Assembly: GCA_947627185.1 (NCBI GenBank)
Contig: CANQVF010000001.1
Coordinates: 35,404 to 99,403 of the forward strand
Direction: 5' to 3'
Source of the DNA: an uncultured Clostridia bacterium
Lineage (GTDB): Bacteria; Bacillota; Clostridia; TANB77; CAG-508
Length of the DNA: 64,000 nucleotides
Shown here one piece after another: positions 29,912-33,010 of this stretch (within the stretch, counting starts at the first letter, position 1; every line of letters begins with the position of its first letter). The notes under the pieces were generated by a model. That model was not told where the DNA came from. It saw only the letters and a program-made list of their open reading frames with translations, and made no database searches. The position numbers were made by a program, and so were the translations under genes.

Positions 29912-32900
29912 ATGGAATTATTTGAAAAAGTAAAACAAAAAAAATTACATATTATTTTGATAATTGCAATAACATTACTTATAGGTATAGTAATGTCTTT
30001 ATGTTTATGCAAAAAACAATATATATCTGTTTCAAAGATGTTACTAATTAAATCAGAGTCATCCGCAGACAAACAAGATGATCAAATAAATATTGCTATT
30101 TCTTCAAAGTTAATTCACACATTTGATGAATTATTAAAAAGTGATTCTACTATTCAAGAAATAAAAAGTGAATTTAATTTAGACGTTAATAATAATGAAT
30201 TAAAAAAAGAAATTAATGTAACAAATAATCCTTCTTCTAATACTTTTCAAATAGAAGTAAAAACTTTTAATGATGAAATTTCTTTAAAAATAAATAAAAA
30301 ATTATTAGAAATTTTTTCTACTAAATTATCTGAAATGTATGAAAATACACAATTATATGTAGTAGACAATCCATATATTTATAAAACAGTTAATAATATA
30401 TCTATTGTTATGTCAATAATAATTTCTTTATTTATAGGAATGTTAATAAGCACGGTATATGTATTTATCTTAGTAATAATAGATAGAAATATAAAAATAA
30501 ATAAAGATATTGATGATGAAATTAATTTAAAAAAATTAATAGAAATTCCATTAAAAGTTTATAAAAAAACAAAAAACAAAAATGAAGTAAAAAAAGAATT
30601 AATATCTTATGATAGTCAAAAATCATTGACTTCAAAAGCTTTTAAAAATCTTAGAACTAATATACAATTTATAAATGTTAATAATAAAAATAAGAATATC
30701 ATATTAATAACTAGTCCTTCTGATTTAGAAGGTAAAAGCTATATTACAGCAAACCTTGGTATAACTTTTGCAGAAGTTGGAAAAAAAGTTATTATAATTG
30801 ATTCAGATATGAAAAATGGAAGACAAAATCAAATATTTAATATACCTAATAATTTAGGATTTTCAAATTATTTATCAAGTCTTGATTCAAATGGTGTAGA
30901 AATTAAAAAGCTTACAAATAATTTTATAAATGAAACTGCAATAAAAAATTTAAATTTGATTACATCTGGAACTATACCACCAAATACATCAGATTTATTA
31001 ACTTCTGAGAGATTAGAACAATTAATAAAAGATTTAAGCGTTTTTTATGATTTAGTATTAATAGATGGTACATCAGTTTTAAATAATATGGATGCTTTAA
31101 TTTTAAGTAGAGTAGCCAATTCTACAATTTTTGTATCTGATTACAAAAAAACAAAAAAAGAAAATTTATTAAAAGCCAAAAGAGATGTTCAAAATGTTGG
31201 TGGAAAACCAATAGGAGTTATAATTAATAAAATTAAAATTAGAGAGAAAATCTCATTTGAAGAAGTAAAAAATAGCTTTAGTAAAAAAATTAATGTAATA
31301 AAAAAATTTATATTTAAATTATTAGATAAAATTAAAGTTGAAATAAATGTATCATTAAATAAAGTTAAACAATATAAGGAAAACAAAAAACAAAAACTTT
31401 TAATGGAAGCTAAATTAGAAAAAGAAAAAAATGAAGTTAAAGAAAAAGAAGAAACTGAAATTAAAGAAATAAAAATTTCAGAAGAAGATAACAAAGCAAA
31501 TAAGAATGATTCTAACAAAAAATCTAAAAAAGAAGAAAAAGAAAATGTTAAAACAATTATTCCAGAAATAGAAATTGCGAATTTAGACAATACTAAAAAT
31601 AAACAAAATACAATAAACAATATAGTTTTAATTGAACCTAAAAATAATGTAATATCTAATAATAATATTAGTATGGAAAAAAGTTTTCATATTAAAGAAT
31701 TTGTAATTAAAAATGCAGAAATAGTTAAATCATTTTCAATTAATACTTTTTCTAAACTAAAAAAACAAATTTCTAATTTTAAACAAAATGTTACTAATTT
31801 AATTTCAAATATAAAAGAAAATCATGACAAAACAGAGTTAAATGATGATGAAAACCAACAATTAACATTTGATAATATCATAAATGAAAATAATTCTTTA
31901 AAAGAAACAACAAAACCTAATACTTTATCTGTAGAAGAGAAAAAAGAATCTAAAAATATAAATGATGGAAATGTAAAAACAGATAATACAAATTTAATAA
32001 AACTTGAAAATAGTGTTAAAGGAAAAAATGAAAATAAAAAGACTATAAAAAATAATATTCAATCTAAGAAAAATAAAAAGAAAAAAGAAATAAAACAAAA
32101 TGAATCTGTTTTAATAGTTGTTGATGCAGAAGAAGGATATTGCAGAATATTTAGTGAAAAAATTTACGTAGAAAAAATGATTAAAGGAATAGATCAAAAT
32201 GATGGTTTCAAAAAGGATAATTATTCCTCAAATTTAATTAATAGTAGAATGCAAGGATTAATTAGTTTATATGGTATAACAGCAAAACAAGCTAAAAAAG
32301 TAGATACATTAGTATATACAACTTTGTGTGATTATGATGAGGCTGTTTGGATATCTGAAAAAACAGTTTCAAATAAGGCAGATAATTATGTTTATTGTAT
32401 GTCTAAAAATTATGATAAATTTTCTAATGAAAGTTTAAAAGAATATGAATTAAGATGCAAAAGACTTAGAAGAGAAAGTTTAGCAGAATTAAATATAGAA
32501 TTAGAATATAAATTAAATGATATATTAAAAAGCAATAAAATTAATCTTTTAGATAAAATAACAATGATGCATTTTGCTAAAATGTATGAAATAGATGATA
32601 AACTAAAAACAGAAGAAGAAATAATAAAAAGTGCAGAAAATATTGAATTTTATGAGAAAATTATTGAAAGATTTGAAAGCAAAAGTAATCTAGAAGAAAA
32701 TGTAGAAACTGTTAATTCAGGTGTTTATGAAGTAGAAAAAGATGAAGAAACTATTGTATCAATTGATAAAAAAATAAAAAAAGAAGAACAAAAAAGAGTT
32801 AGAGAAGAAAAAAGAAAATTAAGAAAAGAAAAGGCTGAAAAAAGAAAAGAGAAGAAAATAAAAATAAAAGAAGAAAAATTAAAAAAACAAGAAGAAATTA

Positions 32901-33010
32901 GAAAACAAAAAGAAGAGGAAAAAGAAAAACAGAAAGAAGAAGCAAGAATAGAAGAAGAATTATTAATTGATAATTTATATCCAAAAACAAAATATAATAG
33001 AAATTTATAA
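29912..33010 (+). CDS. fused Wzz-type chain-length regulator / BY-tyrosine-kinase (CpsC-CpsD-like) with about 590-aa Lys/Glu/Asn-rich C-terminal extension
   Basis: TM1 (res 13-33), extracytoplasmic domain, TM2 (about res 165-190). Then a P-loop kinase with Walker A SPSDLEGKS, Walker A' DSDMKNG and Walker B DLVLIDGT. No C-terminal tyrosine cluster. The downstream region is low-complexity/coiled-coil with one globular island (about res 730-860). Confidence 0.7.
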   Translation: MELFEKVKQKKLHIILIIAITLLIGIVMSLCLCKKQYISVSKMLLIKSESSADKQDDQINIAISSKLIHTFDELLKSDSTIQEIKSEFNLDVNNNELKKEINVTNNPSSNTFQIEVKTFNDEISLKINKKLLEIFSTKLSEMYENTQLYVVDNPYIYKTVNNISIVMSIIISLFIGMLISTVYVFILVIIDRNIKINKDIDDEINLKKLIEIPLKVYKKTKNKNEVKKELISYDSQKSLTSKAFKNLRTNIQFINVNNKNKNIILITSPSDLEGKSYITANLGITFAEVGKKVIIIDSDMKNGRQNQIFNIPNNLGFSNYLSSLDSNGVEIKKLTNNFINETAIKNLNLITSGTIPPNTSDLLTSERLEQLIKDLSVFYDLVLIDGTSVLNNMDALILSRVANSTIFVSDYKKTKKENLLKAKRDVQNVGGKPIGVIINKIKIREKISFEEVKNSFSKKINVIKKFIFKLLDKIKVEINVSLNKVKQYKENKKQKLLMEAKLEKEKNEVKEKEETEIKEIKISEEDNKANKNDSNKKSKKEEKENVKTIIPEIEIANLDNTKNKQNTINNIVLIEPKNNVISNNNISMEKSFHIKEFVIKNAEIVKSFSINTFSKLKKQISNFKQNVTNLISNIKENHDKTELNDDENQQLTFDNIINENNSLKETTKPNTLSVEEKKESKNINDGNVKTDNTNLIKLENSVKGKNENKKTIKNNIQSKKNKKKKEIKQNESVLIVVDAEEGYCRIFSEKIYVEKMIKGIDQNDGFKKDNYSSNLINSRMQGLISLYGITAKQAKKVDTLVYTTLCDYDEAVWISEKTVSNKADNYVYCMSKNYDKFSNESLKEYELRCKRLRRESLAELNIELEYKLNDILKSNKINLLDKITMMHFAKMYEIDDKLKTEEEIIKSAENIEFYEKIIERFESKSNLEENVETVNSGVYEVEKDEETIVSIDKKIKKEEQKRVREEKRKLRKEKAEKRKEKKIKIKEEKLKKQEEIRKQKEEEKEKQKEEARIEEELLIDNLYPKTKYNRNL

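Follow-up and report, generated by a model that had tools for sequence, protein, structure and literature searches.

Bacterial tyrosine kinases (BY-kinases) are usually described as autokinases in which a phosphorylation cycle on a tyrosine tail drives polysaccharide assembly. Here, we report on a protein in which the ATP site of this fold is strictly kept and the tyrosine apparatus is lost. Its gene lies in a stretch of 64,000 nucleotides from an uncultured Clostridia bacterium (GenBank assembly GCA_947627185.1, contig CANQVF010000001.1, positions 35,404 to 99,403 of the forward strand), hereafter called the window, to which all nucleotide positions refer unless a locus is named. At 29912..33010 on the forward strand a single uninterrupted reading frame encodes 1032 amino acids that join a co-polymerase-like membrane module, a BY-kinase-type P-loop domain and an extension of 586 residues. 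The extension holds two uncharacterised elements under strong selection, a domain of 190 residues and an invariant terminal peptide. We propose that the protein is a BY-kinase-derived, nucleotide-gated membrane scaffold, and we assign to this reading a probability of about 0.5.

Domain architecture of the fused protein

A preliminary description of this DNA, made from its letters alone, had proposed a fused chain-length regulator and BY-kinase, and both parts were found in the one reading frame. A CpsC-type chain-length-determinant module (NCBIfam TIGR01006, residues 2-211, E 4e-21) is followed by a BY-kinase domain (TIGR01007, residues 243-446, 148.4 bits against a cutoff of 108.05), while Pfam matches to the two modules (Wzz and kinase) were weak. 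Hydropathy and the AlphaFold (AF2) model place two transmembrane segments at about residues 9-36 and 159-196, flanking an extracytoplasmic domain of about 127 residues. The modules are listed here with their identities, which are mean pairwise values across the family described below, and with the predicted local distance difference test score (pLDDT) of the model.

29912..33010, + strand: whole reading frame of 1032 residues, with co-polymerase-like module, P-loop domain and 586-residue extension
29912..30010, + strand: residues 1-33, short cytoplasmic N-terminus and transmembrane helix 1; K6 nearly invariant; identity 0.46
30011..30391, + strand: residues 34-160, small extracytoplasmic alpha/beta domain of the CpsC/CapA type (polysaccharide co-polymerase class PCP-2b); TIGR01006 and Pfam Wzz; pLDDT about 75-87; identity 0.40
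30392..30487, + strand: residues 161-192, transmembrane helix 2, from the AF2 model and hydropathy
30488..30631, + strand: residues 193-240, juxtamembrane segment aligning with the C-terminal activator peptide of CapA (CapA-Ct) in 4jlv, 3bfv and 2ved; P213 invariant
30632..31249, + strand: residues 241-446, BY-kinase-type P-loop domain; pLDDT above 90; identity 0.64
31250..31405, + strand: residues 447-498, amphipathic helix in the position of the tyrosine cluster; helix over residues 449-493 at pLDDT 63-77; identity 0.33
31406..32107, + strand: residues 499-732, low-complexity linker rich in K, N and E, variable in length and sequence; pLDDT below 50 over 494-613 and 637-727; identity 0.19
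32108..32686, + strand: residues 733-925, globular C-domain; pLDDT about 90-96; identity 0.46
32756..32932, + strand: residues 949-1007, long helix rich in E and K; AF2 helix 949-1020 at pLDDT 76-86; identity 0.38
32933..33007, + strand: residues 1008-1032, C-terminal peptide EEARIEEELLxDNLYPKTKxN(K/R)N(L/I); last 13 residues at pLDDT below 50; identity 0.80

The membrane module (residues 1-240) was modelled confidently. The full-length model has a mean pLDDT of 71.6, and neither the tail nor the C-domain received a confident placement relative to the kinase domain in it. The extension is rich in lysine (19%), glutamate (15%) and asparagine (11%) and gave no Pfam, NCBIfam or PDB match in sequence and profile searches, in keeping with the novel K/E/N-rich extension that had been noted before. 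The globular island seen within it is real, with a span of residues 733-925 and not 730-860. The remainder had been taken for a coiled coil; what we find instead is a disordered linker and a charged segment resembling a single helix. Residues 949-1019 are 72% charged and have a hydrophobic occupancy of 0.30 at the a and d positions of a heptad test, so that, as judged from composition and pattern, an ER/K-type single alpha-helix is more probable here than a coiled coil. At the end of the amphipathic helix stands a KQKLL motif (residues 493-497, window 31388-31402), of which K495, L496 and L497 are conserved at 90% or more, and variants such as KLLPEG occur in divergent members.

Retention of the ATP site and loss of the tyrosine apparatus

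Conservation counts are from 97 aligned members of the family unless another number is given, and the comparison with Staphylococcus aureus CapB was made on unique sequences, namely 117 from the group of the window protein, 13 divergent orthologues bearing the terminal peptide (the tail) and 40 canonical BY-kinases. The nucleotide-binding residues proved nearly or entirely invariant. Within Walker A, G274, K275 and S/T276 are each present in 97/97 members and align with K55/S56 of CapB, and of the two Walker A' (DxD) aspartates D297 is found in all 97 and D299 in 89. The Walker B aspartate D385 is likewise found in 97/97, and N439 is invariant. Every residue for ATP-Mg binding is thus kept and, by the same alignment, hydrolysis is probably kept too.

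The residues that serve the acceptor tyrosine have met a different fate. In the structure of CapB, acceptor Tyr225 is sandwiched by K82 and by P159-P160 of the hhhhDTPP motif (PMC2422856). At the K82 position canonical kinases have K or R in 37/40 sequences, while the group of the window protein has N (38), S (37) or T (22) and neither K nor R in any of its 117 sequences. Proline at position 159 (34/40 canonical) is replaced by threonine in 87/117, and proline at 160 (40/40 canonical) is replaced by serine in 52 and retained in 23 of the 117. In the window protein, K301-N302 stand at the positions of CapB R81/K82, and D385 is followed by G-T-S, so that the Walker B extension (hhhhDxxP or DTPP) fails. 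The preliminary description had called the Walker motifs intact, which is correct for K275, S276, D297, D299 and D385 and incorrect for the Arg-Lys pair after DxD and the Pro-Pro pair after the Walker B aspartate.

Contacts of the kinase ring are also affected. E23, R26 and R29 of the CapB octamer pair with E133 and R81 across the interface, and the tyrosine tail makes up 44% of that interface (PMC2422856). Glutamate at position 23 (40/40 canonical) has become K in 89 and R in 11 of the 117 sequences and is E in none; arginine at position 81 (40/40 canonical) has given way to N (44), K (15), I (14), T (12), S (7) and others. The equivalents of R29 and E133 are still present, as R248 and E/D361. 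Judging from these alignments, the ATP/Mg machinery is under strict selection, and the acceptor-tyrosine pocket and part of the ring contact, the E23-R81 salt bridge, are lost.

Tyrosine clusters were counted as the maximum number of tyrosines per 10-residue window within 70 residues past the kinase domain. Canonical kinases (38 sequences) reached 3-8, and all 154 distinct members of the group of the window protein stayed at 0-2 (53 with none, 83 with one and 18 with two), which agrees with the earlier remark that a C-terminal tyrosine cluster is missing. The window protein itself has a single tyrosine in residues 447-732. In terms of the signature of BY-kinases, it has Walker A, DxD, the two-pass transmembrane activator with its juxtamembrane segment and a TIGR01007 score above cutoff, and it lacks three defining traits, namely the tyrosine cluster, the Arg-Lys pair of Walker A' and the Pro-Pro pair of Walker B (PMC3245071, PMC4007543). 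A confirmed BY-kinase in BYKdb needs both Walker-like motifs and a Y cluster (PMC3245071), and the isBYK filter of that database would place the protein, which has no Y cluster, in the 'unsure' class.

A clade-specific insertion of 8 residues in the P-loop domain (residues 322-332, window 30875-30907, SSLDSNGVEIK) co-occurs with the tail. In ≥92% of the proteins that bear the tail its D325, G328 and E330 are conserved, and 29-34/40 canonical kinases as well as CapB show a gap there. This insertion could be a docking site or, equally, a mere phylogenetic marker.

Family, synteny and evolutionary series

The gene had been called an orphan. It does lie outside any capsule (cps) locus, and at the same time it belongs to a conserved family and is not the one-off that the term implied, as at least 150 distinct relatives have the same architecture. 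Among 5.8 billion proteins, a search returned 175 matches, and the best 120 were mostly 850-1200 amino acids long with the same architecture. When one genome per species was scanned, full-length relatives turned up solely in metagenome-assembled genomes (MAGs). These come from the gut of rabbits, mice, chickens, humans and ruminants, and their labels read uncultured Clostridia, uncultured Clostridium sp., Candidatus Scatovivens or, for two of them, Lachnospiraceae. We infer that the lineage is GTDB TANB77/CAG-508. Scatovivens is placed in GTDB order TANB77, family CAG-508, with 119/121 UHGG species listed NS, not RS (PMC13106387). For this order of abundant gut bacteria with almost no cultured members, hypotheses derived from sequence are the sole entry point.

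The gene order RNase Y, sigH, ychF, a 144-amino-acid gene, the gene reported here, a gene for about 430 amino acids, metG, a tmk-like gene, a WG-repeat gene and fba recurs in about 35 loci. Such synteny is a lineage-wide housekeeping order and in itself no evidence for a functional link. Across these loci the gene was never in or next to a cps operon.

Divergent orthologues, with fused proteins of 613-1022 amino acids, follow the ychF and 144-amino-acid pair in loci such as L026, L027, L028 and L031 (gene coordinates within the locus 9980-12088 in L026 and 3759-6548 in L031). At another locus (L033, 9980-11821) the upstream pair is missing, but the tmk-like and WG-repeat genes come after. A canonical tyrosine cluster stands directly behind the kinase domain in such orthologues (GSYNDGYYYYGE, KYYYYNEE, GYENTYYYYGD). 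Their Walker A' reads DADMRRGR and their Walker B DGAP, so that Arg81 and P160 are kept, the K82 position is mostly Arg and P159 is already Ala. They have a long helical extension rich in E, K and A that ends in the same terminal peptide, ...EEFLMENLYPKTKNNKNM (ENLYPKTK), and no globular C-domain. The cluster is present in 8 of the 14 divergent orthologues and absent from 6, and it is absent from 154/154 proteins with the C-domain.

Neither a tyrosine cluster on realignment nor a homologue within a cps operon was found for the group of the window protein. The cluster is kept by divergent orthologues at the same locus, and its loss is therefore a derived state. Because cluster and tail coexist in these orthologues, the tail must predate the loss of the cluster and cannot simply be its replacement. 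Loss of the cluster, loss of the pocket and gain of the C-domain mark a derived branch that contains the window protein.

Fused forms are usual in this lineage, whereas in complete genomes the split type accounts for 98.7% of the BY-kinases of Firmicutes (PMC4007543). Shorter fused paralogues with tyrosine clusters also occur in the divergent MAGs (L031 11086-12543, L032 11434-12864 and L033 17498-19591). Those of L031 and L032 have a degenerate PPNP.ELL motif (GTACIDYSKLL), and all of these paralogues, like the divergent orthologues, lie outside cps operons; the neighbours of the paralogues include a P-type ATPase, a polysaccharide deacetylase, a spore photoproduct lyase, a GT2 glycosyltransferase and a GlmM-like mutase. 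In three further copies the family gene is split into two reading frames within the linker with the tail still encoded (L030 9989-11829, L032 3084-5869 and L034 383-2618), and the most likely cause is a frameshift from assembly of the A/T-rich repeats, not decay to a pseudogene.

The C-terminal peptide

The preliminary description had missed the terminal peptide, which is the most conserved region of the protein (identity 0.80). NLYPKTK, which contains Tyr1023, is identical in 97/97 aligned members, and most positions of the flanking EEARIEEELLxD reach at least 90% conservation. In 1.46 Mb of locus DNA each locus has a single copy of the peptide, and no copy stands anywhere but at the C-terminus of a family member. 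Because the tail is the most conserved part, is older than the loss of the cluster and is invariant after the loss of the pocket, it fits better as a putative docking peptide for a conserved partner than as a substrate of the old acceptor pocket. Two other origins were considered and rejected. The tail tyrosine is no simple substitute for the tyrosine cluster, since both coexist in the divergent orthologues, and LYPKTK is no LPKTG-type sortase signal, since it stands at a cytoplasmic C-terminus with no hydrophobic segment behind it.

The C-domain and its second architecture

Modelled alone with 30 homologues, the C-domain reached a pLDDT of 91.2 and a predicted template modelling (pTM) score of 0.88. 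The predicted structure is a beta-meander of three to four strands, after which come helices and one more strand. The domain matched no family in Pfam or NCBIfam and nothing in PDB by sequence or profile, and the best structural hits by Foldseek were at E 0.58 in PDB and E 0.24 in BFVD. It appears to be an undescribed family whose fold has no detected relative in PDB or BFVD. Among the sub-threshold structural matches, RNase H-like and actin-like folds come up repeatedly, and the N-terminal hairpin VLVIVDAExGxCRVFS is reminiscent of them; in these predicted models the likeness is a lead only. The domain was also absent from the viral contigs searched, and PADLOC gave no match for the protein or its neighbours; a phage or defence origin was rejected on these grounds.

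A profile search of 1.84 billion representatives gave 97 matches, of which 40 below 1e-30 were members of the family, whole or as fragments. The weaker matches (about 1e-14 to 1e-4) revealed a second architecture, in which the domain stands mostly at or near the N-terminus of proteins of mostly 470-855 amino acids. In the members inspected the domain is followed by a K/E-rich linker, a juxtamembrane motif W(T)RKI..K.SIKNKKF and one transmembrane helix, and then by a spacer of low complexity ahead of an extracellular domain that is conserved (YSE.PDGTG..G.F...LGFVT). Alignment of the C-domain with the N-terminal domain of this single-pass family by hhalign gave a probability of 99.8% and E 1.8e-27 over 156 columns, with the motifs RGID.DG..K..YS, VD.L.Y.TL.D[YW]D, RC...R...L, I.I.Y and DK common to both. 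In both architectures a charged linker tethers the domain to the membrane on its cytoplasmic side.

Six tyrosines are invariant in the C-domain (Y771, Y787, Y802, Y808, Y826 and Y866). In the alignment with the single-pass family, which has no kinase, Y771, Y787, Y826 and Y866 correspond to Tyr, and Y802 and Y808 to Phe/Tyr and Trp. Because they align with tyrosines or other aromatics in a kinase-less family of membrane proteins, structural roles are suggested for them.

The single-pass proteins are annotated as 'hypothetical protein [Clostridia bacterium]' and are found at L079 8001-9965, at L081 and L082 8001-10382 and at L083 423-2747 (P0148, P0157, P0184), and also as P0156, P0164 and P0177. 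Three gene contexts compared showed no conserved neighbour, and the extracellular domain had no Pfam, NCBIfam or PDB match. A profile search with the full-length single-pass relatives recovered only the query, low-complexity words dominating.

Comparison with known systems

Residues 190-446 find their best match in S. aureus CapA/CapB (4JLV, 3BFV and 2VED; E 2e-37 to 4e-35), including the juxtamembrane activator, and weaker matches in Wzc and Etk (E about 1e-25; Wzc 3e-25). Because CapB is closest, the alignment takes in the CapA activator and Wzc and Etk score less well, the protein is a natural equivalent of the engineered CapA-Ct/CapB chimera, of the Firmicutes type and not a Wzc. With CapA/CapB it has in common the small ectodomain, the two transmembrane helices and equivalents of the ATP/Mg residues K55, S56, D77, D79, D157 and N211. 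It differs in being a single fused chain, in having neither the tyrosine cluster nor the K82/P159/P160 pocket nor the E23/R81 contact, in its 8-residue P-loop insertion and its 586-residue extension with a new domain and terminal peptide, and in its place outside a cap operon with no phosphatase gene nearby.

The likeness to Escherichia coli Wzc (class PCP-2a) is that co-polymerase and kinase reside in a single polypeptide. In Wzc, however, the periplasmic domain is large and helical, the tail is rich in Tyr, and the gene sits with wza and wzb in a capsule locus; the ectodomain here has about 127 residues. The NCBIfam equivalogs for Wzc scored 105-126 bits against cutoffs of 1068-1248, in the kinase part only. 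The Gram-negative Wzc-like architecture proposed earlier is not upheld, given an ectodomain of the CpsC/CapA type and a kinase domain that matches CapB at E 2e-37 and Wzc at E 3e-25.

BY pseudokinases such as Myxococcus xanthus EcpK and Caulobacter crescentus HfsB resemble the protein in having the fold without a phosphorylatable tyrosine tail, and a scaffold role has been proposed for them (PMC12004946). The pseudokinases described are without catalytic residues (PMC12004946), whereas the present family keeps all. EcpK is a stand-alone protein with a partner co-polymerase and an exopolysaccharide (EPS) cluster; the window protein is fused, lies outside any cluster and has a large extra module. 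By analogy it may work most like a BY pseudokinase scaffold, without being one, as its catalytic residues are intact.

MinD and ParA (SIMIBI class) have the same P-loop fold class, and an amphipathic helix follows the ATPase domain. Nucleotide-dependent association at the membrane is, on this analogy, likely to be a mode common to them and the window protein. They differ in that the signature lysine of the deviant Walker A motif (KGGxGK[ST]) is missing here, where the P-loop reads TSPSDLEGKS, and in that the window protein is permanently anchored by two transmembrane helices. The MinD model TIGR01968 scored 38 bits against 212.9, and ParA models were at noise level.

Interpretation and alternative explanations

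The scaffold reading starts from what is observed, namely how the protein is built, which of its residues are conserved, and the series of losses and gains. The family descends from a fused CpsC/CapA-type co-polymerase and CapB-type BY-kinase, and in the branch of the window protein the features of a tyrosine autokinase have been lost. The membrane module of the protein spans the membrane twice and displays a small extracytoplasmic domain. In the proposed mechanism the ATP state of the P-loop domain would set the oligomeric or conformational state of this module, as in BY-kinases and MinD/ParA relatives, such that an ATP cycle instead of a phosphotyrosine cycle acts as the switch. The tethered C-domain and the terminal peptide may then capture one or more cytoplasmic partners at an envelope machine contacted by the membrane module. 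ATP hydrolysis, oligomerisation, partner capture and the envelope-related role are parts that we infer. In favour of a scaffold, the C-domain is confidently folded in prediction and recurs as a membrane-tethered domain in a second architecture. The preliminary description had suggested a repurposed BY-kinase, either an ATPase scaffold or a kinase acting on a different substrate; the core of this idea is supported, and because the ATP/Mg residues are invariant and the acceptor-tyrosine pocket is dismantled, the former fits better than the latter.

Several points weigh against this reading. The partners of the tail and the C-domain are postulated, and ATP binding and hydrolysis are predictions from conserved residues. 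The Phe of the CapA activator that stacks on adenine (F221) has no conserved equivalent in the family. With E23/R81 changed and the tyrosine tail gone, which in CapB supplies so much of the interface, the ring may not form. Tyr1023 and about six C-domain tyrosines are invariant, and phosphorylation by a remodelled site is possible. No Wzx, Wzy or glycosyltransferase partner lies near the gene in any locus, the 'envelope machine' coming from ancestry only, and the full-length AF2 model leaves the tail undocked (pLDDT below 50 for residues 1020-1032).

An alternative that we consider unlikely but worth weighing is a still-active tyrosine kinase in which specific tethered substrates have taken the place of the tyrosine cluster; these might be Tyr1023, the C-domain tyrosines or the tail (YAYKKVSDY) of the 144-residue protein encoded directly upstream. 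All catalytic ATP/Mg residues are invariant, Y1023, found in 97/97 members, hangs on a tether long and flexible enough that it could get to a neighbouring active site, and the six C-domain tyrosines and the Tyr-rich cytoplasmic tail of the upstream protein are invariant or nearly so; BY-kinases are also known to phosphorylate other proteins (PMC4007543). However, the acceptor-tyrosine residues K82, P159 and P160 were lost in the group of the window protein only, the tail did not originate as a substitute, as it stands alongside a normal tyrosine cluster in divergent orthologues, the C-domain tyrosines have suggested structural roles, and AF2 does not put the tail into the active site. Rather more doubtful is that the protein is an ordinary phosphorylation-independent co-polymerase of the EpsV/EcpK or HfsA/HfsB type, serving a Wzx/Wzy pathway encoded elsewhere and with the extension as a lineage decoration. 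PCP-2 systems independent of phosphorylation do exist (PMC12004946), the CpsC-type ectodomain and the transmembrane helices are kept (identity 0.40-0.46), only 64 kb of the source genome is in view, and there are GT2, GlmM-like and deacetylase genes near some orthologues and a GT2 gene 10.4 kb upstream in the window. Yet no cps operon was seen at the roughly 35 syntenic loci or around the short fused paralogues, all catalytic residues are kept, unlike in the described pseudokinases, and the tail and C-domain are conserved as much as or more than the ectodomain, which argues against decoration.

A positioning ATPase like MinD or ParA, acting in cell division or sporulation with the membrane module as an anchor only, seems very improbable. 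BY-kinases are structurally related to MinD (PMC2422856), weak MinD matches and the amphipathic helix behind the P-loop domain point the same way, sigH is in the neighbourhood, spoIIP and PBP genes are in the window, and Streptococcus pneumoniae CpsD is reported to be linked to the cell cycle (PMC4574921). Against this stand the missing signature lysine, MinD models far under their cutoffs (38 against 213 bits) and the fact that the sigH/ychF synteny is a lineage-wide housekeeping order. That assembly or gene calling had joined unrelated reading frames is a negligible concern: the DNA is AT-rich and of low complexity (24.7% GC) and some MAG copies are split (L030, L032, L034), but the at least 150 distinct uninterrupted sequences from many independent assemblies, with constant module order and invariant C-terminus, refute it.

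Tentatively, and with much less expectation than for the scaffold as such, one may go further and see a membrane machine of a new class, whose BY-kinase core has become an ATP-driven switch over a tethered module. This module would consist of a domain with a fold unrepresented in PDB, common to the window family and another family of envelope proteins, and of an invariant docking peptide resembling the C-terminal peptide of FtsZ (FtsZ-CTP-like) at the tip of a long tether of disordered and single-alpha-helix segments. On this further reading it would be a cytoplasm-to-envelope coupling system not known before and specific to TANB77/CAG-508 gut Clostridia, to which the neighbouring protein with the YAYKKVSDYN tail may also belong. 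The natural series at one locus runs from proteins with the tyrosine cluster and Arg81/P160 kept to proteins with cluster and pocket lost and the ATP site strictly kept, and so pulls apart the two functions of the fold, as ATPase and as kinase. This route differs from that of the catalytically dead pseudokinases described so far.

Gene neighbourhood and transcription signals

The features flanking the gene are as follows.

29244..29678, + strand: upstream neighbour of 144 amino acids, candidate partner, conserved in 36 loci, also where downstream synteny is broken
29708..29745, + strand: terminator-like hairpin and U-run closing the upstream small gene (-11 kcal/mol, z -4.0)
29799..29827, + strand: promoter-like site TTGAAT-17-TATAAT, a consensus match only
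about 29902-29908, + strand: strong ribosome-binding site GAGGGAG ahead of the ATG, a Shine-Dalgarno match
33023..33076, + strand: strong terminator-like hairpin and U-run just past the stop codon (-21.8 kcal/mol, z -9.3)
33264..34559, + strand: downstream neighbour of 431 amino acids, acidic, conserved at the locus, with its own promoter-like site at 33155-33183

Because terminator-like hairpins stand on both sides, the gene appears monocistronic and is probably its own transcription unit. The promoter-like sites carry no statistical weight in such AT-rich DNA (window GC 24.7%), the consensus scan having found 46 matches where 58 were expected in shuffles.

The genes of the window are of housekeeping character throughout. 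Upstream of the gene the window encodes, in order, relA, hisS, spoIIP, queA, tgt, pnp, GT2, murB, a yvcK-like gene, a debranching enzyme, RNase Y, sigH and ychF; downstream follow metG, a tmk-like gene, fba, smpB, sortase, PBP1, a D,D-carboxypeptidase, pfk, tig, clpP, clpX and fab genes. All window reading frames of at least 100 amino acids were scanned, and none encodes a phosphotyrosine phosphatase, a flippase or a polymerase or is a cps gene. The sole glycosyltransferase of the window is the GT2 adjoining murB, 10.4 kb upstream, and with this exception the earlier statement that no phosphatase, sugar transferase, flippase or polymerase lies nearby was confirmed.

The 431-residue neighbour had no Pfam, NCBIfam or PADLOC match. 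Its 22 homologues of 410-465 amino acids are unnamed and apparently lineage-restricted, and a lone PF09581 flag on one of them was not used.

The 144-residue protein has a signal peptide, a low-complexity region rich in N, T and S, an LP[YK]AG motif (LPYAG in the window) and a transmembrane helix, with a weak sub-threshold match to a family of sortase-dependent surface proteins. Its cytoplasmic tail, SA(L/I)YAYKKVSDYN(V/I), is near-invariant and contains 3 tyrosines. The tails of sorting signals are usually just a short basic stretch, and because of this the conserved tail looks unusual; the protein is a candidate partner or substrate of the fused protein.

Further along the conserved block, metG (window 34591-36193, + strand) is split by a +1 frameshift near 34840-34863; related loci have one reading frame of 533 amino acids, and as the gene is essential, the frameshift probably reflects an error of sequencing or assembly. 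Because SigH (27186-27830, above the NCBIfam cutoff) and SpoIIP (4013-5158) are encoded, these low-GC gut Clostridia are probably spore formers. Two paralogues of about 550 amino acids with WG-containing, beta-propeller-like repeats (PF14903) are also encoded, at 9788-11458 and 36918-38561 on the forward strand, and the second of them belongs to the conserved block that follows the gene.

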